From positions 1 through 64,000 of IMG/VR virus record IMGVR_UViG_3300044922_000175: 64,000 nt of DNA; one strand, 5' to 3'. Below the pieces are notes generated by a model, which saw nothing but the letters and a program-made list of their open reading frames with translations, made no database searches and had not been told where the DNA came from. The position numbers and the translations under genes are program-made. Position 1 is the first letter of the stretch. Each line of letters opens with the position of its first letter. Positions 1-42,457 of this stretch are shown here, piece after piece. The DNA comes from a virus.

Positions 1-1
1 T

Positions 2-97
2 GAAACTGATGAGCTTGATAGTGAAGGTACTGTTAGAATGAGGTGGGAAATCTTTATGAAGCAGAAAATATTCGGAGGTAACAATGAGCAACAATAA
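2..97 (+). CDS. Partial (5'-truncated) small early protein ending ...KIFGGNNEQQ*
   Basis: Frame is open from the window start to TAA 95-97 and ends inside junction repeat J1. Confidence 0.7.
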   Translation, partial: ETDELDSEGTVRMRWEIFMKQKIFGGNNEQQ

Positions 98-284
98 ACA
101 AAGTATGAAAACACATAGAACAACAACTGCGATTTTAATACTAATACTATTGCTTGGTTGGGCAATCGCTAAAATTGACGCAGTATTTTATTCGGTACTT
201 ATCTTATCAGTATTGGGTATTATGTATGCTTTTATTTATCTGGGTATTGTTCGTAACACAGGAGGCAACAATGAGCAACAATAA
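84..284 (+). CDS. Small membrane protein (2 predicted TM), MSNNKQ start
   Basis: Two hydrophobic stretches; begins and ends in junction repeats. Confidence 0.75.
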   Translation: MSNNKQSMKTHRTTTAILILILLLGWAIAKIDAVFYSVLILSVLGIMYAFIYLGIVRNTGGNNEQQ

Positions 285-510
285 ACAAAGTAGCGTAGAA
301 AAAATGTTTCAAGAAATGCTTGGGATTCAACAAGAAGGAATTAAACTAACTTTTGATGAAAATTTGGATTTACTTCACAAATACAAAGCAATGCACAAGG
401 AGGAAACTCTGAAATTGTATTATGCTTACGAAGATTATGTATTGCGTGAAGAAGGCATCATAAAGACATTTGGGCAATTTTACAACGAAACATTTGGAGG
501 TAACAAATGA
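271..510 (+). CDS. Hypothetical early protein (MSNNKQSSVE...YNETFGGNK)
   Basis: Start moved from 154 to ATG 271 in repeat J2, which has GGAGG 5 nt upstream. Confidence 0.8.
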   Translation: MSNNKQSSVEKMFQEMLGIQQEGIKLTFDENLDLLHKYKAMHKEETLKLYYAYEDYVLREEGIIKTFGQFYNETFGGNK

Positions 511-767
511 GCAACAATAAACAAATCATGAAACTATACACAGAAGAAGAAATTTTAAGTTTGTTAAAAATACATTTAGCAGACGAAGATCAAGCCGATT
601 CATTTGTATCACTTTTAACCCCTATTGAACTACTAAGTGATGAGGAGATAGAAAAATGGGCTGAAATGCAATCTTTGTGTGAACCAACAGGTGCAGAAAA
701 ATTTGGTAGAATTTATGGCGCAAAATGGATGCGTGATAAAATACAAGAAGACAATGACAAACAATAA
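507..767 (+). CDS. Hypothetical early protein, C-terminal module shared with 3195..3470
   Basis: ORF track; IELLSDEEIEK...GAKWMRDKIQ versus IELPSDKDIDK...GAKWMRNKIQ. Confidence 0.8.
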   Translation: MSNNKQIMKLYTEEEILSLLKIHLADEDQADSFVSLLTPIELLSDEEIEKWAEMQSLCEPTGAEKFGRIYGAKWMRDKIQEDNDKQ

Positions 768-829
768 AAAAATAATATGAACAAGAAATTTTCAGAATGG
801 TACGGACAATTAAAAACAAAATCTAAGCA

Positions 830-1096
830 ATGACAAACAATAAACAACAAACGGCAGTGAAAAAACTATTATTAGCAACATTACTTATCGGAATGATAAG
901 CAGTTGCGAGGAACCAACAGTATCATCAAGAACTACCAACTACACAATACCCAGTGAAGGTAATTTAGCATCAGACCCGCTTAAAGTATGTGTAATTGAA
1001 GGATGTGAATACTTCATTTGTAAGAATTACAAGGGTAATATTCTATGTCACAAAGGAAACTGCAAAAACATAATACACAAGGGAGGTGAGCAATGA
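830..1096 (+). CDS. Putative small Cys-rich lipoprotein
   Basis: Hydrophobic stretch plus lipobox-like ISSC; CVIEGCEY...CHKGNC. Confidence 0.7.
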   Translation: MTNNKQQTAVKKLLLATLLIGMISSCEEPTVSSRTTNYTIPSEGNLASDPLKVCVIEGCEYFICKNYKGNILCHKGNCKNIIHKGGEQ

Positions 1097-1326
1097 CAAA
1101 CAATAAACAACAGACCCTGCCACCAAAAGAAAAGGCAAAAGAACTGGTATCAAAAATGGAAAAAGATTTCCAATATTTTGCAAGTAGACAAATAGCAATA
1201 CAACACGCATTAATTGCAGTTGAAGAAATTTTAAGTATCAACTCCGTTGACAAGGATGAGGATTTATCAAACTATTGGGAAGAAGTAAAAAAAGAAATAG
1301 AAACCTACGGAGGAGGTGAAGAATGA
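1093..1326 (+). CDS. Hypothetical early protein (KEKAKEL...ALIAVEEIL...YWEEVKKEI type), paralog of 3870..4208
   Basis: ORF track; starts in J6 and ends in J7. Confidence 0.8.
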   Translation: MTNNKQQTLPPKEKAKELVSKMEKDFQYFASRQIAIQHALIAVEEILSINSVDKDEDLSNYWEEVKKEIETYGGGEE

Positions 1327-1383
1327 CAAACAATAAATGCACCCAGATGTAGCAAAAGAATATGGCTTTAGTAAAACAAGAAT

Positions 1384-1575
1384 ATGAAAACAGAAGCAGA
1401 ACATTTAGAAGATAAATTAAAGATGGCCAATATTATTGGTTATTGTATTGGTGAGTTAAAAGGACATCATGCACATTATGCAGGACCACAAGCAATAGAA
1501 AAAAGCTATTTAGAAGCAGAGAAACAGTATAAAGAATTTTTAGATAACCTAATTAAAAAACCAGATGACATTTGA
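1384..1575 (+). CDS. Hypothetical protein
   Basis: ORF track; coupled to neighbours. Confidence 0.65.
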   Translation: MKTEAEHLEDKLKMANIIGYCIGELKGHHAHYAGPQAIEKSYLEAEKQYKEFLDNLIKKPDDI

Positions 1576-1822
1576 AGATTTAGAATTTAAACCTATGACT
1601 AACCATGATAATGGGATACATGTAAGAGTAGAGTTTCCTAATGGTTATGGTGCTAGTGTTATACAATCCCCATATAGTTATGGTGGATCTAATGGTCTAT
1701 ATGAGTTAGCAGTATTGTATGGTGGTCATATATGCTATGATACAGAGATAACTAATGATGTGTTAGGCTATCTTAACCAGGCGGATGTAACAGAGTTACT
1801 CCAAAGGATAGAAGCACTATGA
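1565..1822 (+). CDS. Hypothetical phage protein (FPNGYGASV...GLYELAVL motif)
   Basis: ORF track; recognisable small phage protein type; ATGA overlap with the next gene. Confidence 0.75.
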   Translation: MTFEDLEFKPMTNHDNGIHVRVEFPNGYGASVIQSPYSYGGSNGLYELAVLYGGHICYDTEITNDVLGYLNQADVTELLQRIEAL

Positions 1823-2151
1823 AAAATTTACCCACAGCAAAAGAATTTCTTAACAGAGATGAGAGTGGAGTCTTCAATGAAGTAGACATCACTCAGGCTA
1901 TGGATGAATACGCTAAACTACATGTACAGAGGATTAAAGACTTCTTAAATTCTGAGATATGTGAGCGTAGAGAGTATACAGCATCTCGTATGTGTGAGGA
2001 AGTACTTAAGTTCATACAAGACAGTGAAAAACTAGATAAGTTTTTAGGAGGTGCATATGGAGAAATCTATCAGTCTGATGCACTTGCAAAACTTAAAGAA
2101 AGAGTTGAACAACGTAAAGAATTTAAAAAAAAGAAAAGAAAACATGGGTAA
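1819..2151 (+). CDS. Hypothetical protein
   Basis: ORF track; ATGA coupling. Confidence 0.7.
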   Translation: MKNLPTAKEFLNRDESGVFNEVDITQAMDEYAKLHVQRIKDFLNSEICERREYTASRMCEEVLKFIQDSEKLDKFLGGAYGEIYQSDALAKLKERVEQRKEFKKKKRKHG

Positions 2152-2824
2152 AATAGACAAAAACAGTAAATTCTATAAGGCTCCTACTCTACAAGAGCGC
2201 TTACAAGACATTAAGTATTTCTTTCTCTTCTGGAGAGGGAGGAAGAGGGGTATGATATTCACCCGTAACATTGAATTAGATGATTTCCGTTATATCTTTT
2301 TTCCTAAAGGATTTGAGAAATATGGTTACTTAGGAACACATCTATGGAATGAAGATGGTGACTGCTTTAATGCTTTATACCCTTTAGTACTTGCTATGGA
2401 TCATGACGCTAAGCCTAAATTCTGCCCCAGGTGGTTTTTACGCTTTCTTCACGTATTTGGTAGTGATAGATCTATTGTAAGAGTCCGTAACTGGACTTTG
2501 CATGACTTACTTAGAAAACTAACTCAAGGTATTGCCTTTGTAGATTGGAAGACTAAGTGGCACAGTTATGACCTACGTATCTCTATTCATGCTCCTAAGC
2601 ACTTACAAGACTTAGCAGATGATATAGAACATGGGTTTTACTCTAGAGGTGCACAAGAAGAGTTAGTAGCTAAGATTAAGAAACTAGACCCTAATGCAGG
2701 TATTATTTGGGGTAGTGTAGATAAATTAGTAAAACAACTAGAAAAACTAGAAGCTGAAAAAGAGAATCGAGATAAGCAATTAGATTCTCTTATTAAACAA
2801 GCTAATAATAAACTTAGAGATTAA
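2144..2824 (+). CDS. Hypothetical protein with C-terminal coiled coil
   Basis: Start moved to ATG 2144 (MGKIDK), which overlaps the end of the previous gene. Confidence 0.75.
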   Translation: MGKIDKNSKFYKAPTLQERLQDIKYFFLFWRGRKRGMIFTRNIELDDFRYIFFPKGFEKYGYLGTHLWNEDGDCFNALYPLVLAMDHDAKPKFCPRWFLRFLHVFGSDRSIVRVRNWTLHDLLRKLTQGIAFVDWKTKWHSYDLRISIHAPKHLQDLADDIEHGFYSRGAQEELVAKIKKLDPNAGIIWGSVDKLVKQLEKLEAEKENRDKQLDSLIKQANNKLRD

Positions 2825-2841
2825 TAAACAACTATAAGAAC

Positions 2842-3060
2842 ATGAAACAAACTAGCAAAGATTGGTTACAAGAGATATTAGAAGCTAAAATCGCAAGCTT
2901 TCCAAAACCAAAAAAGGTAGTAGGATGGTATTGCTTATCAACTAAGATTATGGTAAATACTATTGCATTTGCTACACATAGTAAGCCTAACTTTATTAAG
3001 AGATTCTTTATGAGAACTTTATTAGATTTTTACTGGGTTAAAGACACAAACAATGACTGA
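2842..3060 (+). CDS. Hypothetical protein
   Basis: ORF track; A-rich start context. Confidence 0.7.
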   Translation: MKQTSKDWLQEILEAKIASFPKPKKVVGWYCLSTKIMVNTIAFATHSKPNFIKRFFMRTLLDFYWVKDTNND

Positions 3061-3208
3061 AAAAGAAGCTATCATAACCCTTGCCTACTATAATGATTGG
3101 AGGCAAGGGAAAGATGTAGATGCACCTATGGTAAAACCAGAACATGTAACCGAAGCAATTAAGGTTGTAATTCAAAAATGGAAAGAAAGAAACAATGAGC
3201 AACAATAA
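3053..3208 (+). CDS. Small hypothetical protein (51 aa, MTEKEAIITL...RNNEQQ*), below track cutoff
   Basis: Translated by hand; fills the gap and ends in junction repeat J8. Confidence 0.7.
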   Translation: MTEKEAIITLAYYNDWRQGKDVDAPMVKPEHVTEAIKVVIQKWKERNNEQQ

Positions 3209-3470
3209 ACAAACAGATATTAAAGAATTGGCTATTACAGAATACCCATTTGGCAATAGTGAAAGAAATGCTTTTATCAATGGTTATAATAAGGCTAAAG
3301 AATTGCATAAAAATCAGACAATAGAATTACCAAGTGATAAGGATATAGACAAAGAGGCCACGGATTTATTTAGTAAAACTACCAAAATTTATATTTCCAT
3401 TATACAATGCAAAGCATTCAAGCAAGGTGCAAAATGGATGCGTAATAAAATACAAGGAGGTGAGCAATGA
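3195..3470 (+). CDS. Hypothetical early protein, MSNNKQ start
   Basis: ORF track; flanked by J8 and J9. Confidence 0.8.
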   Translation: MSNNKQTDIKELAITEYPFGNSERNAFINGYNKAKELHKNQTIELPSDKDIDKEATDLFSKTTKIYISIIQCKAFKQGAKWMRNKIQGGEQ

Positions 3471-3877
3471 CAAACAATAAACAACAGACGGCAGTGGACT
3501 TTGTACCCTATGAACTTGCTTTAGAGTTAAAACAACTTGGATTTGATGAACCTTGTTTAGGTTACTATCTAGCAAGTAGTTTATTTATATCTAATGATAA
3601 TGTTTATAATTCAACAGACATTCCTGTAATAAAGGCTCCTCTGTATTCACAAGCATTTAGATTCTTTAGAGAGAAGCATAATCTTAGATGTCAAATCAAT
3701 TATATTGGTGGACTAATCAACAAAACTACATGGTGGGATATTTCTGTTATTGGTCATTACAATACAGACCCTAAAGAATGGGAGATGAAGTATCAACCGT
3801 ACGAAGAAGCAGAACTTGATTGCCTTAAAAAATTAATTGAGATAGTAAAAACACACGAAGGAGGTAACAATGGCTAA
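3467..3877 (+). CDS. Hypothetical early protein (FVPYELALELKQLGFDEPC...APLYSQAFRFFREKH type)
   Basis: ORF track; flanked by J9 and J10. Confidence 0.8.
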   Translation: MTNNKQQTAVDFVPYELALELKQLGFDEPCLGYYLASSLFISNDNVYNSTDIPVIKAPLYSQAFRFFREKHNLRCQINYIGGLINKTTWWDISVIGHYNTDPKEWEMKYQPYEEAELDCLKKLIEIVKTHEGGNNG

Positions 3878-4208
3878 AGAATCTATATCTTCCTTTATTG
3901 AAAAGCTACTTAGTGAAGCATCTCCTGAACAAATGGAAGCTACAAGCAAACAAATGGAGCCTCTAGGTCCAAAAGCAGAAGCTCATGACTTAGTTCTATC
4001 TTTTTATTACAGCCTTCCTAATAACGGAAGTTTAAATCATGGTATTAATAGCTGTGAGTCTCGTTATAAGGAAGGTGTTGTATGTGCTATGGTTGCTGTT
4101 AATAAAATCATAAGCATTGCTCCTTGGGGAGGTGATATTGACGGTGAAATTGAGCAAGGGTCTAAAGAATACTATCAACAAGTAAAAACAGAACTAGAAA
4201 AGCTATGA
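3870..4208 (+). CDS. Hypothetical early protein, paralog of 1093..1326
   Basis: AMVAVNKII...YYQQVKTELEKL resembles ALIAVEEIL...YWEEVKKEIETY. Confidence 0.75.
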   Translation: MAKESISSFIEKLLSEASPEQMEATSKQMEPLGPKAEAHDLVLSFYYSLPNNGSLNHGINSCESRYKEGVVCAMVAVNKIISIAPWGGDIDGEIEQGSKEYYQQVKTELEKL

Positions 4209-4531
4209 GCAAGATTAAACAAGACAAAATACCAATGACATTAACGGAAGATAATGTCTTACAGGTTTCTGGCTTTAAATATAAGCTAGTTAGAGAAAGA
4301 GATGGACTACTTAATTCCGGTTATCAGGTTGGATGGATTGAATGGGGTGAGGATGGTAAATACAAACAACTACATGATGAGCCTGCAGTAGGTAGATCTC
4401 TCATTATAGATCCCGCCTCTACACCTTTTTTCACTTGGATGACTACTACTGTTACAGAAATCTTGGAACAAAGAGAAGACTATGTTAAATTTAAAACCAC
4501 AAATAGCATCTACGAATTATTTAAGTTATGA
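4205..4531 (+). CDS. Hypothetical protein
   Basis: ORF track; ATGA coupling. Confidence 0.75.
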   Translation: MSKIKQDKIPMTLTEDNVLQVSGFKYKLVRERDGLLNSGYQVGWIEWGEDGKYKQLHDEPAVGRSLIIDPASTPFFTWMTTTVTEILEQREDYVKFKTTNSIYELFKL

Positions 4532-4950
4532 TTGAAGAATATAATGAGTGGTACTGGAGACTCTATAGATGGTTTAGATGGGAGTTTAAATACCAACACA
4601 AATACATTAAGTACGGAGTTAAGAACTTATATAAATGGTTCTGGATAATCTGGAAAGATAGAGACTGGGACCACTATTATATCTTTCAGGTACTAAAATT
4701 TAAATTAGAGAAACAAGCTAAACATTTAGCCGAAAATGGTTTTCATAATAATGCTCAACGAGATGCAGAGTTAATGATGACTTGTGTTAGATTAATTGAT
4801 AAGCTCCAAAATGAGTATTACTATGATGAGCTATGTAAATCCGGTGTAAGGTCATCTGAAGCAGTTAAAAATGTAATAGCTAAACACAAAAAAGCAAAAC
4901 GTTTATTATTTAAAATAATGAATGATAGGATTGAGGAATGGTGGGATTAA
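4528..4950 (+). CDS. Hypothetical Trp-rich phage protein
   Basis: ORF track; IWKDRDWDHYY motif. Confidence 0.75.
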   Translation: MIEEYNEWYWRLYRWFRWEFKYQHKYIKYGVKNLYKWFWIIWKDRDWDHYYIFQVLKFKLEKQAKHLAENGFHNNAQRDAELMMTCVRLIDKLQNEYYYDELCKSGVRSSEAVKNVIAKHKKAKRLLFKIMNDRIEEWWD

Positions 4951-4962
4951 AATAAAAAAATT

Positions 4963-5247
4963 ATGGCAAGAACAACAAGAGAACAAAAAAGAGAACAAGC
5001 AGTAATTGACATCATCAATCAGATGTTTGTTATTGCAGGTCATGAAGTCACTTTTGAGGACATTAAAGGCCGCAAAGATGATTGGTTTACTCAATGGACT
5101 ATGACAGTTGCTCAATCAGAAGAATGGAAAGCATGGGGTATAGCTTACCTGCGTAAGAATCTTAAGATGAATAAGAAACTAGCAGAGAAAGAAATGGCTT
5201 GGTTTAATGTACAGTGGGGACTTAAATACGAAGATTATAATATATGA
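4963..5247 (+). CDS. Hypothetical protein
   Basis: ORF track. Confidence 0.75.
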   Translation: MARTTREQKREQAVIDIINQMFVIAGHEVTFEDIKGRKDDWFTQWTMTVAQSEEWKAWGIAYLRKNLKMNKKLAEKEMAWFNVQWGLKYEDYNI

Positions 5248-5256
5248 GCAATAAAG

Positions 5257-5487
5257 ATGAGAACTCACCCTAAAAAAAGCAGTCTAGAACTACTAGTCAT
5301 TGCCTTATATGAGAAGGGATTCTTACAGGGAAATGGTAATGATATAGATAATCTACTTGAAGAGCATAAAATATTACATAAAAATGAAATAATGGATGCC
5401 AGAACTAACGGTAGATGGTCTTGTACTGAAAAGTATGGAGAGATAAGAACAAACAAACAATATTACGATGAGAATTTTTCTAATTAA
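5257..5487 (+). CDS. Hypothetical protein, distant paralog of 271..510
   Basis: LLEEHKILHKNE...QYYDENF versus LLHKYKAMHKEE...QFYNETF. Confidence 0.65.
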   Translation: MRTHPKKSSLELLVIALYEKGFLQGNGNDIDNLLEEHKILHKNEIMDARTNGRWSCTEKYGEIRTNKQYYDENFSN

Positions 5488-5635
5488 ATTAGCTTTATTA
5501 GCTGTATTATTTTTCTTTGGTGGTCTTAACTTATTATTATTTATTATAATCAGTTTTGTAGAGATGATTGAAGAAAAAGTAAGTAAACTATGTGATTTTA
5601 TAGAATGTAAAATTGAAAAGTATGAAAGAACTTAA
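5468..5635 (+). CDS. Small membrane protein (55 aa), below track cutoff
   Basis: Translated by hand: MRIFLIKLALLAVLFFFGGLNLLLFIIISFVEM...; fills the gap. Confidence 0.6.
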   Translation: MRIFLIKLALLAVLFFFGGLNLLLFIIISFVEMIEEKVSKLCDFIECKIEKYERT

Positions 5636-5801
5636 ACTAGACTTAAATGGTTTTACTGCTAAGCAGTATGCTGCCCTTATTATTAAAGAAGAGTTAGAAT
5701 TTAGCCACGGGCGTGGTGGTATAAAAATGGGTACTAACAGAGAAACTTTTGCTAGACTTTATAGAAGAGCTAAACTTAAAGAAAATGCCAAATCAATGTA
5801 A
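5622..5801 (+). CDS. Hypothetical protein
   Basis: ORF track; ATG 5622 preferred as start. Confidence 0.6.
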   Translation: MKELKLDLNGFTAKQYAALIIKEELEFSHGRGGIKMGTNRETFARLYRRAKLKENAKSM

Positions 5802-5955
5802 CTACTGCTGTGTAGAAATACCTGAACAAGATGTACTTTGTGAAGAGTGCTACAACAGCCGGTATATGCTAGAAAAATATATTACTAAAGATGAAATACT
5901 TAACGGCACTGATGAAAACAATCCATCATTCTATCAAATGGACGATGACGCATAG
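5785..5955 (+). CDS. Small Zn-finger-like protein (CNYC...CEEC)
   Basis: Two CxxC pairs; ATG 5785 preferred as start. Confidence 0.6.
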   Translation: MPNQCNYCCVEIPEQDVLCEECYNSRYMLEKYITKDEILNGTDENNPSFYQMDDDA

Positions 5956-5976
5956 TGTTTTCCAAAAATTTTAATT

Positions 5977-6351
5977 ATGAAGACAAAACTAACTTTAATT
6001 ATCCTGGCACCTTTAATGTTGCTGGGCTTTAATCAATTGTACTCTGTTATATACAAATTTAACAGAATGCGTAAACTGTATGTAGATAGATTCCAGTACT
6101 ACAAAAGAAGAAATCTTATCAAAGACTCTTACTGTGAATACTATATCCAAGCTTTTGGTGAATTTAGGTTGTGGATGTTTAAAGAGTTTGTCTTTAACAA
6201 GCATTACACAGTTAAACATTTCTTTAATAGCACTTATGTTTACAAGAACATGAATGCACATTACATTAAAGAATCCGGGGATGTACCATTCATGCCGGAG
6301 TTTAATAATATAATGGAACACTGGAAGTTACACAGTCTTAAAAGGGGGTAG
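5977..6351 (+). CDS. Hypothetical protein with N-terminal TM/signal anchor
   Basis: ORF track; last gene before a terminator. Confidence 0.65.
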   Translation: MKTKLTLIILAPLMLLGFNQLYSVIYKFNRMRKLYVDRFQYYKRRNLIKDSYCEYYIQAFGEFRLWMFKEFVFNKHYTVKHFFNSTYVYKNMNAHYIKESGDVPFMPEFNNIMEHWKLHSLKRG

Positions 6352-6371
6352 AAATATCCCCTTTATTTTTT
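6341..6371 (+). terminator. Rho-independent terminator closing the early array
   Basis: GGGGGTA-GAAA-TATCCCC stem-loop followed by TTTATTTTTT. Confidence 0.8.
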
Positions 6372-6378
6372 ATATTTG
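6371..6378 (+). promoter_or_regulatory. Bacteroidota-type -7 box (TATATTTG), 6 nt before ATG 6385
   Basis: Matches TAnnTTTG directly after the terminator. Confidence 0.6.
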
Positions 6379-6384
6379 AAGGTT

Positions 6385-6651
6385 ATGACCCATACCCAAA
6401 CATTAATTGCTGAGACCTGTGATGAGATTAAAGAGTTACTTCTAGATAAGAATAGAAAGTATGGTGACTCTGCAGTAAATCCTATCAGAATACTATCTAA
6501 AAGTAGTAATACTGAACAGATATTAGTAAGAATAGATGACAAATTAAATAGGATTAAAAATGCTCAATCTGATGAGGATGAGGATGTTATCACTGATTTA
6601 ATTGGTTACCTGGTTTTATATAAAGTAGCTAAAAAGTTTAATAACCCCTAA
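6385..6651 (+). CDS. DUF1599-like (nucleotide-modification-associated) small protein
   Basis: KNRKYGDSA...VRIDDKLNRI...DLIGYLVL motif. Confidence 0.6.
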   Translation: MTHTQTLIAETCDEIKELLLDKNRKYGDSAVNPIRILSKSSNTEQILVRIDDKLNRIKNAQSDEDEDVITDLIGYLVLYKVAKKFNNP

Positions 6652-6691
6652 AGATTTTAATCTTATTATATATCAATAACTTACAACATTT

Positions 6692-6790
6692 ATGAAGAAC
6701 ACAAAAATTAAATTAATCTGGTTACTACTATTTTTAGTACTTACCGGTGGTTCTATTTTAACAGCATTTGTAACATATCTATTAACATGA
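6692..6790 (+). CDS. Very small single-TM protein (32 aa)
   Basis: Translated by hand: MKNTKIKLIWLLLFLVLTGGSILTAFVTYLLT*; ATGA overlap with 6787. Confidence 0.5.
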   Translation: MKNTKIKLIWLLLFLVLTGGSILTAFVTYLLT

Positions 6791-7449
6791 GAATAGTTTG
6801 TATATCTGACACGCACACAATGCATGAAGAAGTGAATCTTCCTGATGGTGATATATTAATACATGCTGGTGACTTTAGTAATAGAGGTGGTAAGAGTGAT
6901 GTAGAAGATTTCTTTGGTTGGTTAATGCGCATTAAACCTAAGTATAGACATATAGTGTTTATTGCCGGTAATCATGATAAATCATTTGATAGTAAATATG
7001 GAGAGATGCCGGACTGGTTATCAGAGGGTATAGCAGAACTAGAACAGAATAATATCTGGTATCTAAAAGATGCTCTAATAGAACTAGAGGATATTAAATT
7101 TTATGGTATGCCCTGGACTCCTTGGTTTTATGGAGATACATGGGCATTTAATAAAAGATTGGGCCCGGATATGCAAGAAGTTATAGATATGATTGAGCCT
7201 TGTGATGTATTAATTACACATGGTCCACCAATGTATACCGGTGATTTAACATCAAATAATGGACAACATGTAGGTTGTCCTCAGTTAAGAGAGAAAATAG
7301 AGGAGATCCAACCTAGATTACATGTTTTTGGACATATTCATGAAGGTAGCGGTATCCAAGCAGTAGATAGATGTATTCATGTTAATGCATCTCAGCTTAA
7401 TGAGCACTATGAATTAATAAATATACCTTATTCAATTGAACTACCATGA
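6787..7449 (+). CDS. Calcineurin-like metallophosphoesterase
   Basis: SDTH, AGD, GNHD, THGPP and GHIHE motifs in the canonical order. Confidence 0.92.
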   Translation: MRIVCISDTHTMHEEVNLPDGDILIHAGDFSNRGGKSDVEDFFGWLMRIKPKYRHIVFIAGNHDKSFDSKYGEMPDWLSEGIAELEQNNIWYLKDALIELEDIKFYGMPWTPWFYGDTWAFNKRLGPDMQEVIDMIEPCDVLITHGPPMYTGDLTSNNGQHVGCPQLREKIEEIQPRLHVFGHIHEGSGIQAVDRCIHVNASQLNEHYELINIPYSIELP

Positions 7450-7625
7450 TAAAAACAGAATGCACTTACTACAACTTCTTTAGAAAGAAAGTTGGACAAA
7501 GGGACTACCCTTACATTTTTTTCTATCCATTACCATTTATTGCAATATCTAAAACTGGGATTACCCATAAGTTTAGTATTACATTAGGATGGTTGTTCTG
7601 GACAATTTATCTAAAATTTAAATGA
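7446..7625 (+). CDS. Small hypothetical protein (59 aa), below track cutoff
   Basis: Translated by hand; ATGA overlaps at both ends. Confidence 0.65.
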   Translation: MIKTECTYYNFFRKKVGQRDYPYIFFYPLPFIAISKTGITHKFSITLGWLFWTIYLKFK

Positions 7626-8725
7626 CTAAAAGAGATCAAATACAACAAAATGCATTAATAGAAGTAATTAAATACAAAAGAAGTAGCGCTGTAATGAGTA
7701 TGGGATCCGGTAAAACTAAACTGGGCCTAATGCACATGCAGTATTATCTACATGATCAAAGCAGATACCTAGTAGTAGCACCCAAAAGATCTATCTTCCA
7801 ATCTTGGATTGATGATTGTAAAAAGTTTGAGTGTGAAGAGTTACTAGAGCATATCACCTTTACAACATATTTATCTTTAAGTAAGAATAAAACAGATTAT
7901 GACTGTGTGTATCTTGATGAGATGCATAGTCTATTAGATAGTCACCTAGAGTGGCTTGAAAGTTACCGGGGAAGAATACTAGGTCTAACAGGTACACCTC
8001 CTAAGAGAGGCTCTAAAGCAGATATAGTATTTAAATATTGTCCGGTTAAATTTACATACACTGTAGATACCGCAATTGATGATAAAATTCTTAATGACTA
8101 TGAGATCCATGTGCATACTATGCCATTGGATACTAGGAATAACATTAAGAAAGAATCTAAGAAGACCGGTACATGGTATACATCTGAGTATAAGCAATAC
8201 AGTTTCTGGAATAGCAAGCTACAGAATGCCAGCAGTGATAAAGAAGTAAGATTCTTAAGAATCATGCGCATGAAAACACTGATGAGCTTACCAAGCAAAG
8301 AGAAATATGCCACACATCTTATGAATAGCACCACTAATAAATGTATAGTGTTTGCCAATACTAAAGAACAAGCAGATAAACTTTGTAGGTATAGCTATTA
8401 TTCCGGGAATAAAAAATCTGAGGATAATCTTCAGAAATTTAAAGATGGTACTATTGATAGACTAAGCTGTGTACTACAACTTAATGAAGGTATTAATATC
8501 CCTAACCTTAAAGAGGGTATTATCCTACATAGTTACAGTAATGAGCGCAAGTCTAATCAACGTATAGGTAGATTGCTAAGACTAAATCCGGATGAGAAGT
8601 CTATAATCCATATATTATGCTATAGTAATACTATAGATGAGACATGGGTAAAGGAAGCCTTATCAGATTTAGACCAAACTAAAATTGCCTGGAAACAGAT
8701 TAACCAATTACAATTAGAGTTATGA
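7622..8725 (+). CDS. Superfamily 2 DNA helicase (DExH, UvsW/ResIII-like)
   Basis: MGSGKT Walker A, DEMH, LTGTP, LNEGINIP, QRIGRLLR. Confidence 0.9.
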   Translation: MTKRDQIQQNALIEVIKYKRSSAVMSMGSGKTKLGLMHMQYYLHDQSRYLVVAPKRSIFQSWIDDCKKFECEELLEHITFTTYLSLSKNKTDYDCVYLDEMHSLLDSHLEWLESYRGRILGLTGTPPKRGSKADIVFKYCPVKFTYTVDTAIDDKILNDYEIHVHTMPLDTRNNIKKESKKTGTWYTSEYKQYSFWNSKLQNASSDKEVRFLRIMRMKTLMSLPSKEKYATHLMNSTTNKCIVFANTKEQADKLCRYSYYSGNKKSEDNLQKFKDGTIDRLSCVLQLNEGINIPNLKEGIILHSYSNERKSNQRIGRLLRLNPDEKSIIHILCYSNTIDETWVKEALSDLDQTKIAWKQINQLQLEL

Positions 8726-13839: not shown

Positions 13840-14523
13840 ATGGCATCAAGCATCTTAGTTATCGCAGAGAGTGGTGCAGGTAAAAGCACAAGTATTGCAA
13901 ACCTGGACCCACAAGAAACATTTATTATTAACGTTGCAAACAAACCACTTCCTTTTAAAGGATGGAAGTCTAAGTACAAAATCTGGAGTAGGGAAGACCA
14001 AACCGGTAACATGTATACAAGAGCAGCTTCTAAAGAAATTGAGGCCTGTCTTAAATATGTTAGTGAGAAGAGACCTGAGATTAAGAATATTGTAATTGAT
14101 GACTTTCAGTACATGTCAGCATTTGAGTATTTTGATAGAGCAGAAGAGAAAGGTTTTGACAAGTTTACTAGTATTGCTAAGAGTATTGCAACTATTGCAA
14201 AGCTCCCAACTACATTACGTGAAGATTTGTACATTTTCTTCTTAACCCATGCAGAAGAGTCTCAAGACTTAGAAGGTAGAAGAAAGTTTAAGGCCAAGAC
14301 TATTGGAAAATTAGTAGATAACAGTTTAACTTTGGAGGGACTATACTCTATAGTTTTATTTGGTAAAGTAAAGAAAGATAAGGATGGTGGTATGCGCTAC
14401 ATATTTGAGACCCAGAATAATGGTGAGAATACATGCAAGTCACCAGCCGGTATGTTTGAGTCCTTTGAGATTCCCAATGATTTAGAATTTGTAAAACAAG
14501 CAATAATTAACTACGAAAATTAA
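13840..14523 (+). CDS. AAA ATPase, Sak4/AAA_24-like single-strand annealing protein
   Basis: ESGAGKST, IVIDDFQY, LTH, KTIGKL..., TCKSPAGMF; followed by an SSB-like gene. Confidence 0.8.
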   Translation: MASSILVIAESGAGKSTSIANLDPQETFIINVANKPLPFKGWKSKYKIWSREDQTGNMYTRAASKEIEACLKYVSEKRPEIKNIVIDDFQYMSAFEYFDRAEEKGFDKFTSIAKSIATIAKLPTTLREDLYIFFLTHAEESQDLEGRRKFKAKTIGKLVDNSLTLEGLYSIVLFGKVKKDKDGGMRYIFETQNNGENTCKSPAGMFESFEIPNDLEFVKQAIINYEN

Positions 14524-19435: not shown

Positions 19436-20493
19436 AAAATTTGTATTTAAGAATAGATGGTAATAAGTATCTAAAGAAAGTAGGTGAGACTTATTCTCCT
19501 TATGGTTTTAGTAGTAGTAACTATAAAGACTTGTTAGACTGTCTTAAGTTAGAAAGCCTTAATGTTGTAGATCCAACAATCTTTGATGGATTAAATACAT
19601 CATCACAAAGTCTTGTAGCTGGTGACAAAGTATTTATAATGCCGGGGGTAACCATCCCCCGGTATAAAATACGGGAAACTGGTAAAGAGATTGGTTTTGA
19701 TATAGTAAGAAATCAAACTAAAGCAACCAAAGTAGTCTTTAACAAGAAACAGGTTATAGAGGAAATGATAGACAAAAGAAATGAGATGGGAATACCTATT
19801 AACAGTGTAAAACAAATGTTTGAAACTTATAATGTTAGTGCTCCTGAACTAGATGATCCAGATACAGGTAGTTATATTGTTGTAGACTGGTCATTACTTA
19901 GAGGACTCAATCATGTCTATAATAGTGTTATATCTGGCAATACAGATGGTCTAGAAACTAATCATTTTTATACTTATCGCTTTAAAGAAGATGCTTATGA
20001 GCAACTAATCAATGACTTGCTAGCTAATACTAAAGTTATCATCTCTGATAAAGATGTAATGAAACAGTGTAATGGTTCTCAACCACTTAACTCTGAATCT
20101 TATACAAGATTAGTAAGTATGTTTAGTTCAAATCAGAATCAGGAAATTGCCTTGGAGTTACTATGTAACTGTGACTATGATCAGTCTATGGTATATATCT
20201 TGAAGTTGATATCTAGATTTAATCTACGTAATATGCCCGGTACAAACCATGTAAACTATAAAGCATTTAGACAGTACATGACTATACACTGGGATATTGA
20301 TCCTAACTATTACAGTGGTGATATTATAGATATTGTTCGTAGATTAGCAGATGGTGGTAAACTTAAAAGAGAATACCTGTCTGAGTTTAAAGAGGATATT
20401 CTAAAGCATGTAAAAACATATGGTGAAAATAATATCTTCACTATAAGTGCAATTCAAATGAATGAAACATACAAAGAAAAAATAGTAGAATGA
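19432..20493 (+). CDS. Hypothetical protein coupled to MoxR (possible BRCT-like N-terminal part)
   Basis: ORF track; ATGA overlap; the BRCT-like resemblance is weak. Confidence 0.7.
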   Translation: MKNLYLRIDGNKYLKKVGETYSPYGFSSSNYKDLLDCLKLESLNVVDPTIFDGLNTSSQSLVAGDKVFIMPGVTIPRYKIRETGKEIGFDIVRNQTKATKVVFNKKQVIEEMIDKRNEMGIPINSVKQMFETYNVSAPELDDPDTGSYIVVDWSLLRGLNHVYNSVISGNTDGLETNHFYTYRFKEDAYEQLINDLLANTKVIISDKDVMKQCNGSQPLNSESYTRLVSMFSSNQNQEIALELLCNCDYDQSMVYILKLISRFNLRNMPGTNHVNYKAFRQYMTIHWDIDPNYYSGDIIDIVRRLADGGKLKREYLSEFKEDILKHVKTYGENNIFTISAIQMNETYKEKIVE

Positions 20494-21464
20494 CAGATCA
20501 AGAGTTAATAGAACAGTTTTATAAAACTAAGTATTACATTAGTTACTCAGGACTAAGCAAACTAAGGTTTAGTCCTAGATTGTTCTTCACTCATTACATC
20601 CTCCAACAAAAGGAAGAATCGGTTGGTGCACATTTAGTAGAGGGCAGGTTAATTCACTGCCTTCTACTACAACCGGATGAGTATGATAATCAATTCTATG
20701 TAGCTAAAAGTAAACTTCCTTCAGATAATCTTAAGGATATTGTAGATAAAATATTTAGAGAGCACCCTGAATGTAGTGATTTGTCTAACTTTCAAGATGA
20801 AATCTTAAACATTTTAATAGAAAAGAACCTTTACCAGACACTAAAAACGGATGAGCAAAGACTAGCCAAGGTAATTACACCAATTACTACTGACTATCTT
20901 ACTGATCTTATAAATAGTATTGGTAAATCTGTAATTGATCAGAGCACATATGATAAATGCTTACGGGTAGTAACTAAGTTTAAAGCTAATCCGGAAGTTA
21001 GATATCATTTGGGTCTAGATATTACAGAGTTTGATGATGTTAAGTTTCATAGAGAGTTACCAGCAGCTTGTGATCTAGTTGACTACAAGTTTGGTATCAA
21101 GGGTATTCTTGACAGTGTAATTGTAGATGATGTAAACAAAGTAATTAAGATAGCAGACGTTAAGACTACTAGTAAGACAATCCCTGAATTCAAAGAGAGT
21201 GTAGAGTACTACAACTATTGGATGCAGGCAGCAATGTATGTACTACTAGCTAAATGTCACTTCTTAAAACTTGATTACACTTACGAGTATTCTTTTGTGG
21301 TGGTAGACAAGTATGAGCAGATTTATTGCTTTCCTGTTTCTCAGTTAACACTGGATGACTGGAATGAAAGATTTAGAAAAGCGCTAAATGAAGCACATTA
21401 TCACTATGAAAATAGAGATTATTCTCTACCTTATGAGTATATTGTAAACAAAATAATACTATGA
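20490..21464 (+). CDS. PD-(D/E)xK exonuclease (RecE/DUF3799-like)
   Basis: ISYSGL, GRLIHCLLL, KGILDSV...IADVKTT, YWMQAAMY. Confidence 0.85.
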   Translation: MTDQELIEQFYKTKYYISYSGLSKLRFSPRLFFTHYILQQKEESVGAHLVEGRLIHCLLLQPDEYDNQFYVAKSKLPSDNLKDIVDKIFREHPECSDLSNFQDEILNILIEKNLYQTLKTDEQRLAKVITPITTDYLTDLINSIGKSVIDQSTYDKCLRVVTKFKANPEVRYHLGLDITEFDDVKFHRELPAACDLVDYKFGIKGILDSVIVDDVNKVIKIADVKTTSKTIPEFKESVEYYNYWMQAAMYVLLAKCHFLKLDYTYEYSFVVVDKYEQIYCFPVSQLTLDDWNERFRKALNEAHYHYENRDYSLPYEYIVNKIIL

Positions 21465-36974: not shown

Positions 36975-36986
36975 AATAACATAGAT

Positions 36987-37142
36987 ATGATAGGTATAAG
37001 TTTCCTTCCAAAACAAGATGTACTCTTAGGAGTAAATGTAGATCTCCTCAACTATGAGGAAAACGGTAAAATGATTGAAGCAACAAGATTATCCTTTGGA
37101 ATAATCTTTATCACTTTATGTATTTTATTTAAACACAAGTAA
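36987..37142 (+). CDS. Small 51-aa protein with hydrophobic C-terminus, against the local strand
   Basis: Translated by hand (MIGISFLPKQDVLLG...FGIIFITLCILFKHK*); has its own promoter box and terminator. Confidence 0.6.
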   Translation: MIGISFLPKQDVLLGVNVDLLNYEENGKMIEATRLSFGIIFITLCILFKHK

Positions 37143-37171
37143 AATGTAGGGGGAGAAATCCCCCATTATTT
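37141..37171. terminator. Bidirectional terminator between convergent genes
   Basis: GGGGGA-GAAA-TCCCCC with A/T tracts on both sides. Confidence 0.75.
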
Positions 37172-40100
37172 TACATAGAAGTCTGTTACATTATCATAAG
37201 ACTGCCACCTGTTTATTGTATACAGTACTGGCAATGCATCTGACCATTGTTTGTTAAGTTTTAACTGACCCTTTCTAGAACCTTGTTTGTAATACAAACT
37301 CTCCTCATCAAACGCATAGTTATAAGGAAAAGCAAATGTATCACTAACAGCCTCTCCTAATTCACCTAGTAATTTAGAAGATGCTATAGGACTCTTCATT
37401 AACATGTAAGCATTAGCTGGACTAATGAAACTTGTTAATTCTGAAGTCTGTCTATCTGCTTGATAAGCTAAAGCATTTAATAGTCTCTTAAGCTCTTTGT
37501 CATCATCATCAAAATCCATACCTGCAATTAATGAAGATACAATATGAGCAATAGCAAAAGAAGATAAGATAAATGTAAGTTCTGTTGCTACCCGGTTTAA
37601 GTTTTTAATCTGATCTTCTCTTAAACTTTCTTTAGCATCCCTAATCTTAGTAAAGATATCTCCTCTTGCAGATTTAATATGAGATATAAAGCTAGCAAAT
37701 GTCCGGTATCTTCCCTCAATCCAACCAAGGTTTTCATCATAGTACTCTCTTTTAAATCTTGCTTTGAATGCTGGATATACCCACTTGTGAAACTGGAATA
37801 CTAATCTACCAATACTATAATCTTGTAAAGCAGCTCTATCTTCATTAGAGTAGTTACCGTGGATTTGTTTGTTTACTTCACGAATATTATTTCTAATATC
37901 ATAACGTTCTGTATCTGATAACTCAAAGCCCGGCTTTAAAGAAACATTACCGGTATTAGGATCAAAGTCATAAGCATCATATAAAGAGAGTGTCTCACCT
38001 TTATCATTTGTAATTTGCTTAGACATAAGAATAGCCATGCCTACTTTACTCTGCACGTTTGTTTCCGCAGCATCTTGTAAAACATAACCCCATTCCATTA
38101 ATCCACCTTTCTCCTGTACCTCTCTTTGAGCAACACTATCTACCATTCTGTATAGATAAAGTAAAGCTTCATATTTAGACTGAGGATCTTTTTGACCATA
38201 GTAACCTTTACTACTTGCTAATCCTTTAAATGTTCCAGGTAAATACTCACTGTTATAAATACCTACAGCTCTAAGCATAGCTTTTTTATCATAGAATAAT
38301 CCACCACCGGTTTCTATACCGTTGTTTATTCTACCCATAGCATAGTTATTTATATTACCAAAGATGTTAAATCCTACATATGATAAAGATGTTGCATTAA
38401 GTACTTTACTTATAACATTATCTACAGTAGTCTTATCAAACTCTTGCTCTTCATAGTAAACCATCTTTAACCATTTTTTCAAACGTGTAGCTGTTCTACT
38501 CTCTAAACCAGGTATAGTTTTAGCTTTAGTACCCGTAGCAGTACGTACCAATACATTCTGAGACTGACTATACTCTCTATTCTCAACAACTCTCTTTAAT
38601 GCAAAGATTGTATCTTCAGCATTACTCAAGTGTTGATAGTTAGAAGCCATTGCTCTAAACTTAATTAAGCTATCTACTAGATCAGTATTAAGCTCATCTT
38701 TACTAAGCATAGATTCATTTCTTTTGAGCTGCTGTTCTAACTCTTTTAACTGTTCTCTATACTTAGTTGTAGATACCTTACCATCTCTAAATTCAGTTTG
38801 TAATGCTTCTATCTCAGATTTAATCTTATCTATAGTAAACTGACTTTTAAGCTTACCTGTAAAGAAAATAGGAGGTGTTTCAATAATATTACCCTCTTCA
38901 TCTGTAAGAACCACCTTCTGGTAACCAGCATCTGTAAAGCTTTTAAACCAACTAGAAATAGATTTAGTCAAAAGTGTAGTAACACTAGCCGGATCCTCTT
39001 TTAATTTATTTAAGAAATTCTGCTTTTGCCTTGGTAACTTACCAGTCATATCCTTCTTAACTGAAGGAGGTAACATCTTAAGAGCTCCGTTTTCAAATTC
39101 TTGTAACCAGAAATCATAGAAATCTTTCTGTGCTCTCTCTAGTTCTGTAGTAGGATTCATGATCTTGATATACTTTTCATCAAGCATGTTCTCACCGGTA
39201 CTAGCAATGTCACGTACTTCTTTAAACTCTGGCTTTACAAACCATCCTTTTCTAACTGTAGTAGCTCCAAAATAACTACCATCTTTCTCTCTCTGTGCAG
39301 TTACATACTCAGAGTAGTTATAGTATTTATTCTTATACGCTGCATATTCTGCATCTGATACACCACGTTTTTTTCTCCAGCTATAGTTTCTATACTCTTC
39401 ATACTTATCCCGGATCTTTTTAAAATCATCAGTGTATTTGTGATAGTCACCATCTTCTGGTTTATTGTTAACTATTTTTTCAGATCTAGTAAACTCACTA
39501 TAAGCTTGTCTATTTAAGAAAAGTTCTTGGTTAAACTTAATATCTTCAACTTTAGCATCATCTAAATTTGGTATATTTATGTATTCTAACCAGTTATTAT
39601 TATTGTCTACAAGCTTATTTCTTAACTCGTAGAACTTCTTATAGTATTGATAACCAATCTTTTGTACATATCTACCAGTAAAATTTCCGTCCTTATCATA
39701 AACCAACATGAAATCATAATTGGGTTTACCACTTGATAAAGATGCTAATCTATTACCTAATGCAATTGCTTGATCACTAAATGCTTGTACATCATCCTCT
39801 ATCTTTTGCTTCTCTCTTTTATATACTTTATCAATAAGAGCTAAGATAGTATCCGTACTAGTTGCTAAGTCACCAAGTTGAGCATCAGCTACAGAGATAT
39901 CTGTAGTTTCTTTGATGATGGCTTTTATATCATCCTCTGTAAAATTTCTAGTAGAATTAGTTTTAATAAAATTAATAGTAAAGTTTTCTATAGCCTGATC
40001 AATTGTAGTATCAGCAATATTTAATAAATCTGTTACCGCAATTGCAATCTCTCTCTGACCAGGATTAACAACATTACTTAAACTAAGATTACGGATACCT

Positions 40101-42454: not shown

Positions 42455-42457
42455 CTC

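Follow-up and report, generated by a model that had tools for sequence, protein, structure and literature searches.

A repeated coding leader at small-gene boundaries in a freshwater crAss-like phage and its probable use as a connector for gene exchange

The window studied here is the first 64 kb of the 125,939-bp IMG/VR record IMGVR_UViG_3300044922_000175 (the whole record being G000), and near its start lies an array of small genes whose boundaries carry, one after another, the same short sequence. Each repeated junction takes up 25–45 nt and includes the end of one small gene as well as the start of the next. An earlier note on this DNA had read the repeat as a device for shuffling gene cassettes, an interpretation that is partly supported by the analysis described below. 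The repeat is probably a standard connector where accessory genes are swapped within the array, and this connector is a new form of boundary-sequence modular shuffling.

A search of the window for ATGASMAACAATAAA, the top-ranking non-trivial 11-mer by repeat number genome-wide, found nine true copies when up to two mismatches were allowed (at 84, 271, 507, 754, 830, 1093, 1323, 3195 and 3467), all of them on the + strand. Shuffled versions of the window averaged 0.83 copies and never had more than 3, so the repeated boundary sequence that had been described is real. The whole record holds 12 exact copies, the extra three being at 124549, 125111 and 125900, with none on the reverse strand or in the rest of the record outside the array. 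A tenth junction in the window, at 3850–3877, consists of the GGAGGTAACAATG half (GGAGGT) alone.

The junction comes in two types. Type A joins GGAGGTAACA to ATGAGCAACAATAAACAA (read as MSNNKQ), and the upstream open reading frame (ORF) stops at a TAA 11 nt past the ATG, after GGNNEQQ. Type B joins GGAGGTGAGCA to ATGACAAACAATAAACAACA(A/G)ACGGCAGTG (MTNNKQQTAV), and here the upstream ORF closes with GGEQ and the TGA of ATGA. The dual-frame reading proposed earlier holds at the junctions, as upstream ORFs end in GGNNEQQ, GGNK, GGEQ, GGGEE or GGNNG directly before their stops and downstream ORFs open with MSNNKQ or MTNNKQQ. Two separable halves make up the element, a coding leader with stops in both other frames and an upstream GGAGGT. 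The GGAGG half is missing at copies 754, 830, 3195 and 124549, and at copies 754 and 1323 the leader stands alone or is truncated, with ORFs of just 8–9 codons after it. A single package of stop, ribosome-binding site and start, as first envisaged, is thus a local form but not a general one: 72% of the 202 distinct leader copies, counted by context in uncultured lake phages, lack GGAGG, and the unit conserved across the clade is therefore the coding leader.

With their first eight residues removed, the array proteins show no meaningful mutual similarity, the exceptions being a weak pair, G_86 and P_91 (E 2e-4), and common C-terminal tails, which bears out the claim that unrelated proteins share identical N-termini. 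They include one protein with two transmembrane (TM) helices, two lipoproteins and several soluble helical proteins. As to function, the cassettes proved almost exclusively ORFans or viral hypotheticals when searched against PHROG, Pfam and the ESM Atlas. The features of the array and its neighbours, in window coordinates, are as follows.

1–73, + strand: contig head, a tail duplicate of the 71-aa gene X (G000 125028–125100), probably an assembly overlap.
74–104, + strand: junction 1, type A, with GGAGGT, AACA and the ATG leader (MSNNKQS); upstream ORF stop TAA at 95–97; after genome circularisation this is the copy at G000 125890–125926.
84–284, + strand: cassette E, 66 aa, two predicted TM helices, leader start, ending in GGNNEQQ and stop; missing from L154, L090 and L034, where D is joined straight to G.
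261–291, + strand: junction 2, type A, GGAGGC variant.
271–510, + strand: cassette F, 79 aa, of the MSNNKQSSVE...FYNETFGG small-protein family.
496–526, + strand: junction 3, a type A copy into which one base is inserted; ATGA supplies the TGA that stops the upstream ORF.
507–767, + strand: cassette G, 86 aa, leader MSNNKQI before a second Met (MKLYTEEE); 98% identity in L090, L034 and L154.
744–780, + strand: junction 4, a solo leader without GGAGG, then an 8-codon ORF (MTNNKKII and stop).
824–862, + strand: junction 5, GGAGG absent, leader of type B (MTNNKQQTAV); an upstream 18-codon ORF (778–833) ends at ATGA.
830–1096, + strand: cassette H, 88-aa lipoprotein with the leader fused before the signal peptide; leader A, leader B and leaderless versions of its family all occur.
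1082–1115, + strand: junction 6, type B, GGAGGTGAGCA and ATGACAAACAATAAACAACAG; upstream stop at ATGA.
1093–1326, + strand: cassette I (phrog_21441), 77 aa; placed before H, instead of after it, in runs X9 and X11.
1309–1386, + strand: junction 7, leader truncated after ATGACAAACAATAAA and fused to the 3' remnant of an HNH gene (MHPDVAKEYGFSKTRI and stop).
1384–3208, + strand: motif-free block of six genes (63, 85, 110, 226, 72 and 51 aa), containing the conserved backbone gene M_226 (2144–2824).
3185–3216, + strand: junction 8, GGAGG absent, leader of type A; upstream stop TAA at 3206–3208.
3195–3470, + strand: cassette P, 91 aa, a weak paralogue of G.
3456–3498, + strand: junction 9, type B, long leader (to ...ACGGCAGTGGA).
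3467–3877, + strand: cassette Q, 136 aa; two other cassettes stand in its place in G001 and L192.
3850–3877, + strand: junction 10, the GGAGGTAACAATG half alone; the downstream gene R (3870–4208) is leaderless.
6341–6374, + strand: first terminator-like hairpin downstream of the array.
13840–14523, + strand: Sak4-like single-stranded DNA-annealing protein, a putative recombinase (phrog_2872, E 1.5e-64).
20490–21464, + strand: exonuclease VIII-like protein, a candidate partner of the Sak4-like protein (phrog_412, E 1.1e-22).

That cassettes are swapped at the repeat was the central idea of the earlier note, and it gains support from the relatives of this phage, which do not keep the order of the array and whose break points, among near-identical contigs, are strongly enriched inside the repeat. 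A 67-kb contig (G001) is 100% identical to this genome over 2536–3498, is replaced over 3499–4428 and is again 99.48% identical, without gaps, over 4429–31400. The left break of this replacement falls exactly at the 3' edge of the 32-nt type B leader, making junction 9 the left crossover of the exchange that separates the phage from its 99.5% relative. Three other relatives (L090, L034 and L154) carry cassettes A1 (C-terminal part)-X-B-C, D and G at 96–99% identity, with backbone genes at 77–79%, and have the order D-J-G (J, junction) against D-J-E-J-F-J-G here, a 423-nt difference with junction copies on both flanks. L134 has the same cassettes in another order, and in L154 the cassette block lies downstream of M_226, not upstream as here. 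The segment at 748–852, around the solo leader, is 99% identical in L033, L316 and L337, where its neighbours differ.

The break points were also counted, in contig pairs with an identity of 98% or more across 800 nt or more, with a leader window from −25 to +45 of the ATG. Leader windows cover 1.25% of the sequence and took 20 of the 93 internal divergence points; per site, breaks were found at 20/494 leaders versus 16/4894 other same-strand gene starts (odds ratio 12.9, p 2e-12). Of the break points, left ends coincide with the leader's 5' edge and right ends with its 3' edge, the pattern that crossovers within the leader would give. A subset free of motif bias, for which 66 loci were fetched through the backbone protein M_226, gave 5/30 leaders versus 14/572 other starts (odds ratio 8, p 0.0016). 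A simpler count of the ends of high-scoring segment pairs at all identities, made in the backbone-ascertained relatives, did not discriminate: many ordinary gene starts also peak, because alignments fade in diverged sequence. Contigs from lake metagenomes contain alternative joints at the motif (1298 to 830, 3849 to 835, 3847 to 496, 1303 to 271 and 510 to 3876), and the joint that places I before H reaches a depth of 85–100 in other lake runs. Since related phages co-occur in the lake runs, such joints show exchange in the community, not within one population.

Short repeats are places where assemblers jump, and the array orders might on that account be chimeras. Both ends of the contig do fall within the array, its head duplicates the flank of another junction, and many related contigs end at the motif. 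Window 1–99 is identical to 125028–125126, window 1–125 is 94% identical to 125028–125148, and the final 50 nt of the record are similar to 496–546. In the probable source run, X1, one k=31 contig links the tail of the 67-aa gene D (125,865–125,889) to window 74–289; none of the X1 contigs joins the tail of X to position 74 onward, and the X tail leads into a 122-aa gene instead. The head join and its duplicated flank find no support in X1, so window 1–73 is probably an assembly overlap, positions 84 and 125900 are one copy in the circular genome, and the genome has 11 leader copies. Its circular order is GIY-YIG, A1-X-B-C-D-E-F-G-(solo)-H-I-(truncated leader), the six motif-free genes and P-Q-R. 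Against a wider artefact, the k=31 contigs of the source run reproduce every one of the record's own junctions, and arrangements recur in independent samples (L034/L090/L154, L148/L149, L155–L157 and L136/L139/L140). The repeat itself exists whatever the order, and an artefact as the source of the arrangements is most improbable.

A homing endonuclease could likewise concentrate changes at the repeat, if double-strand breaks made there by a GIY-YIG or HNH enzyme drove local gene conversion. An HNH endonuclease gene and a GIY-YIG/NUMOD gene lie directly before the first leader (G000 123206–124528; L009 7207–8529), the GIY-YIG/NUMOD gene at G000 123647–124528, and relative to L132 the array and the GIY-YIG gene sit within the 3' end of the HNH gene. 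In L132, which has neither the GIY-YIG gene nor the array, the HNH gene is intact and ends in the junction-7 sequence; here the 3' end of that gene is displaced and survives as the short ORF MHPDVAKEYGFSKTRI at window 1338–1386. In L148 the GIY-YIG gene is present without the array, and the HNH 3'-end sequence follows it directly. These comparisons identify junction 7 as the right-hand scar of an insertion of the GIY-YIG gene and array into the HNH gene. As for the repeat being a homing target, the GIY-YIG cluster occurs only here and in L148/L149 among the backbone-ascertained relatives, the L148 gene is not beside any leader, arrays are common without GIY-YIG, and 11 copies of its own target would make the phage cut itself. 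We hold this explanation to be extremely unlikely.

Exact 18-mer scans of IMG/VR found the leader at no fewer than 120 loci, many of them with 2–8 copies and many on contigs that end at the motif; 30 loci have the complete 28-nt type A junction, and 80 have the complete 29-nt one of type B. Cultured phages, searched with the junction and also with the 6-kb region, gave nothing beyond chance-level matches (E of 2 or more), so that no isolate carries the element. Across 596 Gb of bacterial genomes, the 18-mer matches listed were essentially single-copy (one tandem pair) and in unrelated phyla, a pattern consistent with chance, and no host was called from them. Among the 66 loci fetched through M_226, 109 of 109 leader copies lie on the gene strand. 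Relatives with an M_226 identity of about 79% or higher carry 1–8 copies, and most of those at 75% or lower carry none. Two large contigs, L316 (233 kb) and L337 (295 kb), have arrays of 6–7 leader-linked cassettes; in L316 a three-cassette block is duplicated in tandem, and either a jumbo phage or a concatenated assembly would account for L316 and L337.

Conservation of the leader is at the nucleotide level. Starts that read M[ST]NNKQ use one of two codon strings in 185 of 205 cases, where 1.6–4.7% would be expected if only the peptide were kept. This bears on the idea that MSNNKQ/MTNNKQQTAV is a functional N-terminal peptide, concerned with targeting, packaging or stability, which would explain why unrelated proteins bear identical N-termini. 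A known parallel is found in the T4 internal proteins, which share a capsid-targeting sequence, T-even internal-protein loci being likewise variable. Synonymous codons are, however, almost never used in the leader, which precedes lipoprotein signal peptides, membrane proteins and soluble proteins alike, is fused at varying depth and is absent from some members of the same families, and a protein tag is thus very improbable.

The families concerned show the leader in several states. Lipoproteins occur as MKKLL..., MSNNKQS-MKKLIL... and MTNNKQQTAV-KKLLL..., the KLYTEE proteins as MSNNKQS-M, MTNNKQQTA-M or leaderless, and D_67 with leader A, leader B or a decayed leader (MSNYEN). Its presence on several families at different fusion depths marks the leader as a portable module that was attached repeatedly. 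The sub-parts of the leader also recombine: codon 2 and tail type occur in all four combinations (81/45/11/2), as do the upstream half and codon 2 (20/18/7/1), with the parts 3–12 nt apart, and these recombinant subtypes point to crossovers inside the connector.

Most leader-bearing genes nevertheless belong to one family of 70–90-aa proteins, M[ST]NNKQ[QS][TS]AVEW...EQAKEMEKE...YYNETYGGGEQ, whose tail and head (MTNNKQQTAVEW...YYNETYGGGEQ) regenerate a type B junction when two members stand in tandem. The junction is thus largely the head and tail of this one abundant small-protein family, ends that other genes have acquired. Family members are themselves mosaic, joined at the EQAKEMEKE segment. 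A 111-nt C-terminal module (ERIETAYNKGTVHGIDYPESTLPITGEQYYNETFGG) at G000 124,776–124,886 (L009 8777–8887) is 92–98% identical in more than 25 contigs, at 97–98% in about half of them, and the N-terminal halves differ. A single-linkage protein cluster (cluster 0) was rejected as a definition of the family, as it merged unrelated small proteins through their shared ends. The backbone gene S_108 starts, at window 4205–4222, with ATGAGCAAGATTAAACAA (MSKIKQ), two mismatches from the leader and present in 20 relatives; the leader may have descended from this start, or the two start contexts may have converged.

Such an origin invites the reading that the junction is a passive by-product, merely the termini of a fast-duplicating small-protein family (MTNNKQQTAVEW...EQAKEMEKE...YYNETYGGGEQ). 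Other genes would have taken pieces of it by illegitimate recombination, ordinary mosaicism and selection at gene boundaries would account for the pattern, and the sequence itself would have no role. That small-protein family (family 0) does dominate the leader-bearing genes, and its tandem members recreate the type B junction exactly; motif-free boundaries also break, the truncated leader at 1323 is joined to the HNH remnant, distant relatives have no leader and some leaders have decayed. What a roleless sequence would not explain is that break points are, per junction, 8–13 times commoner at leaders than at other gene starts, that exchanges are seamless, with identity reaching the edge of the leader, that codons are near-invariant in unrelated genes, that leader subtypes are recombinant, and that in 71% of the copies the upstream gene relies on the leader's stop. 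We consider a passive by-product rather unlikely.

The dependence of upstream genes on the leader brings out its frame logic. Among 172 distinct interior copies, ATGA provides the stop of the upstream ORF 62 times and the internal TAA does so 61 times, and the 71% of copies just cited are those whose upstream gene has no stop of its own. An ORF of less than 20 aa follows the leader in only seven of the 172. In-frame read-through fusions occur too, for example A1 with an internal MPNNKQQ.

As a connector, the repeat would work as follows. Its core is an 18–33-nt coding leader, ATG-AGC/ACA-AAC-AAT-AAA-CAA..., that opens the downstream gene. A gene that arrives from upstream in either of the two remaining frames meets a stop, namely the TGA within ATGA or the TAA at +12, and so ends 0–11 nt from the next start; about 30% of the copies have GGAGGT 5–6 nt upstream. 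With the same 25–45 nt at many boundaries, both within one genome and in co-infecting relatives, homologous recombination inside the connector could insert, delete, replace or reorder whole genes, and such exchange would keep the reading frames and the tight stop–start overlap intact. The leader may also serve translation, through restart or coupling on an unstructured, A/C-rich start region. Predicted folding from −5 to +35 is −0.4 kcal/mol at leader starts versus −2.6 kcal/mol at other starts (nine genes), and such weak folding agrees with the requirement in Bacteroidia that start regions be A-rich and unstructured (PMC13000457). The Sak4-like annealase and the exonuclease, which had been named as possible drivers and are indeed encoded in the window, may perform the exchange. 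Sak4-type annealases support recombination on short or diverged homology. The array is presumably expressed early.

Several observations weigh against a connector, or at least limit what it explains. The right break of the G001 replacement lies inside the ordinary conserved gene S_108, and the enrichment in the motif-unbiased subset comes from just about three independent events. The region also breaks at boundaries that lack the motif (2144, 2842 and 3053 in the six-gene block, and 4429), so the connector is a hot spot and not required for mosaicism; break points beside leader genes would, moreover, be tolerated whatever the mechanism, because the genes are accessory. At the right edge of the array (1323–1352), a shortened leader is fused to foreign sequence in a join that looks like illegitimate rather than homologous joining. 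The leader has decayed in some lineages and is absent from distant relatives with few or no cassettes, which makes it young, clade-specific and not indispensable. Gene order was taken from metagenome assemblies and k=31 contigs, in which co-occurring relatives are inseparable from within-population variants, and the contig's own ends show a repeat-induced misjoin. The GGAGGTGAGCA upstream of type B is G-rich, unlike the usual A-rich start regions of the phage.

The array lies in a + strand block that starts near 116.7 kb, crosses the origin and extends to 25.6 kb; it is upstream of genes for helicases, a primase, the Sak4-like annealase, the exonuclease VIII-like protein and a DNA polymerase. 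From G000 ~122,386 to window 6341 there is no clear terminator-like hairpin, the sole match being a weak 5-pair hairpin in M_226 at 2422, from which we infer that the array has no internal promoters and is a single transcription unit; this suggests one transcript of roughly 10 kb. A scan of 1–8000 for sigma70 promoter-like sequences gave 20 matches versus 37 in shuffles, none recurrent at junctions, with a consensus that may not suit Bacteroidota. Upstream, 15 terminator-like hairpins (4.3 expected) lie on the + strand between very small genes at G000 116–122.4 kb (L009 1–6400), and this region of many short transcription units (116000–122400) precedes the array stretch, where clear terminator-like hairpins are lacking. 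An Rfam search found one transfer RNA upstream of the array (L009 2314–2399). Five relatives (L130, L146, L147, L159 and L173) have repeats of their own, GTTCGTATATT(T/C)AC about 25 nt before AAATAAAGGTTATG, in 4–7 copies per 20 kb, which look like a promoter with a conserved start region; no such promoter-like repeats (GTTCGTATATTTAC..., AAATAAAGGTTATG) occur in this genome.

Two known phage systems had been offered as precedents, and one of them holds for gene exchange. The promoter early stem-loop elements (PeSLs) of T4-type phages are documented shuffling elements, for which mini-circles were shown (PMC2839356, PMC4122927). Like the connector, PeSLs are short conserved repeats that bound small, non-essential ORFan genes in hyperplastic regions, they recombine between copies without needing an integrase, and differences between close relatives (phi1 and RB49 for PeSLs) map to the repeats, with insertions, deletions and replacements here too. 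A PeSL is, however, a non-coding sigma70-like promoter plus terminator hairpin that gives each cassette its own transcription unit, whereas the element here is coding and translational (a stop, an optional GGAGGT, a start and 5–10 codons), apparently on one shared transcript, and belongs to a crAss-like lineage and another host phylum. No terminator-like hairpin was found at the junctions, whose windows fold weakly (0 to −4.9 kcal/mol). Being neither promoter nor hairpin, the element is not a PeSL.

The second precedent, the start-associated sequence (SAS) of Cluster K mycobacteriophages, is 13 bp long and present in 11–19 copies, 3–7 bp from start codons (PMC3203893). The paper proposes a role in translation initiation, unproven, and does not propose gene exchange (PMC3203893), so that the modular exchange for which the SAS had been cited does not stand. 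SAS copies resemble the leader in having one orientation, in standing at the starts of non-structural genes of unrelated families and in being absent from the host genome, and they have a Shine-Dalgarno (SD) core that is sometimes overlapped by the upstream stop. The SAS lies upstream of the start and gives no shared N-termini, whereas here the conserved part is mainly downstream of the ATG, where the break points cluster; the connector sequence does not match the SAS consensus GGGATAGGAGCCC.

Two further comparisons may be drawn. In integron arrays, tandem promoter-less cassettes in the same orientation share one upstream promoter, with a recombination sequence at each boundary. The phage array likewise appears to consist of promoter-less tandem cassettes in one orientation; unlike in an integron, the boundary is a direct repeat within coding sequence, on which general homologous recombination or annealing could act. 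When the array and replication block were scanned with PHROG, Pfam and NCBIfam, the matches were to helicases, primase, Sak4, exonuclease, DNA polymerase, HNH and GIY-YIG and included no IntI-type integrase, no dedicated whole-genome search having been made, and the junctions have no attC-type hairpins, being direct repeats without inverted-repeat structure. In lambdoid phages, the boundary or linker sequences of the modular theory (Susskind and Botstein, with later comparisons of HK620 and HK97) are short conserved junction stretches that act as crossover points between dissimilar modules. Those linkers are sporadic, pairwise and of varied sequence, in contrast to the one sequence found here, with 11 copies per genome, hundreds in the clade and a defined frame logic.

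It has long been asked whether the joints of mosaic phage genomes form at special linkers, or form at random and are then sorted by selection. Here one sequence occupies hundreds of gene boundaries in abundant uncultured lake phages, and breaks can be counted both at and away from it, which makes the question measurable in metagenome time series and crosses. The frame logic, one start with two stops, would allow a gene of any phase to be added to a shared transcript with its neighbours undisturbed. In practice, the connector could guide searches for the accessory genes that change fast in crAss-like phages, genes with a likely part in host takeover or counter-defence.

To judge from its genes, the carrier is a distant freshwater crAss-like phage with a host among the Bacteroidota. 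The matches listed for its large terminase subunit (TerL), ranked by coverage times identity, are all from crAss-like phages at about 26% identity, and Bacteroides and Flavobacterium phages account for much of the other 111 records. A 4566-aa ORF at 42458–56158 has the size of a giant virion RNA polymerase and no PHROG match. A T9SS type A sorting domain is present in the genome, and start regions genome-wide are A-rich, G-poor and without an SD sequence. The runs listed with this stretch are all lake-water, freshwater or riverine metagenomes and metatranscriptomes; RNA runs X19 and X20 contain about 39% of the sampled words of 1–8000, which is no evidence of expression.

The GGAGG half is out of keeping with such a host. 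GGAGG occurs within 20 nt of the start in 8/17 array genes versus 0/113 others (p 1.5e-8), and across the clade it stands upstream of 30% of leaders versus 3.5% of other genes (odds ratio 12). Bacteroidia ribosomes sequester the anti-SD and read an SD only when protein bS21 is missing (PMC7797042, PMC9976891, PMC13000453). The rpsU gene of Flavobacteriales has a strong, extended GGAGG-type SD where ribosomes otherwise ignore the SD (PMC9976891, PMC13000457), but it is a single host gene under bS21 autoregulation. The confinement of GGAGG to this array, in spite of an SD-blind Bacteroidota host, raises a testable question of specialised translation. A literature search for the leader peptide strings and for SD use in crAss-like phages returned nothing relevant.

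The bolder answer is that GGAGGT(GA) is a true SD and that translation of the cassettes is reserved for ribosomes without bS21 or with a platform pocket opened by the phage. In favour of this are the confinement to array genes, the spacing of 5–6 nt to the ATG in 69/87 cases, and the occurrence of GGAGG in all three phases of the upstream ORF as well as in non-coding spacers. The type B sequence GGAGGTGA is complementary over 8 nt to the anti-SD region at the 3' end of the 16S rRNA. The host is of the Bacteroidota, and Bacteroidia ignore the SD unless bS21 is missing. Phase 0, with Gly-Gly codons, is dominant (131 versus 37), an excess expected from descent of the YGGGEQ tail, so most GGAGG copies may simply derive from that family tail; moreover, 72% of the leaders have no GGAGG, and no bS21 gene was found in the phage. 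Translation gated in this way as the meaning of the whole element is improbable. The narrower view, that GGAGGT(GA) is a working SD which marks interchangeable accessory genes for special ribosomes, lacking bS21 or with an anti-SD freed by the phage, is speculative, with a slim chance of being right; if it were true, the connector would be a recombination site and a ribosome-specialisation switch at once.

A start-codon sequence might also be the site for an RNA-binding or RNA-cleaving factor in the manner of T4 RegA and RegB, with recombination secondary. T4 RegB cleaves at GGAG in the ribosome-binding sites of early genes, and RegA binds start regions. Such an operator would look like this sequence, which is conserved at the nucleotide level, covers the initiation codons of functionally unrelated genes within a single transcription block and never departs from the sense strand. 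No match to RegA (PF01818) or RegB (PF10715) was found, a weak negative because control genomes gave no positive either, and the Rfam search of the array returned no family match. The length of the leader past its 18-nt core varies and GGAG is lacking in 72% of copies, and an operator of this kind is improbable.

Some smaller variation was seen near the array. The 51-aa gene O, last of the motif-free block, is flanked by similar 17-nt stretches, AAAGACACAAACAATGA and AAAGAAAGAAACAATGA (window 3040–3057 and 3182–3198), and is absent, with N_72 abutting a leader, from several IMG/VR contigs and from contigs of runs X5 and X11. Farther downstream, window 36979–53172 has no high-identity match in G001, both flanks being 95–100% identical. 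The unmatched part covers a 1762-aa protein and most of the 4566-aa protein, and this giant-protein region looks like a replaced module.

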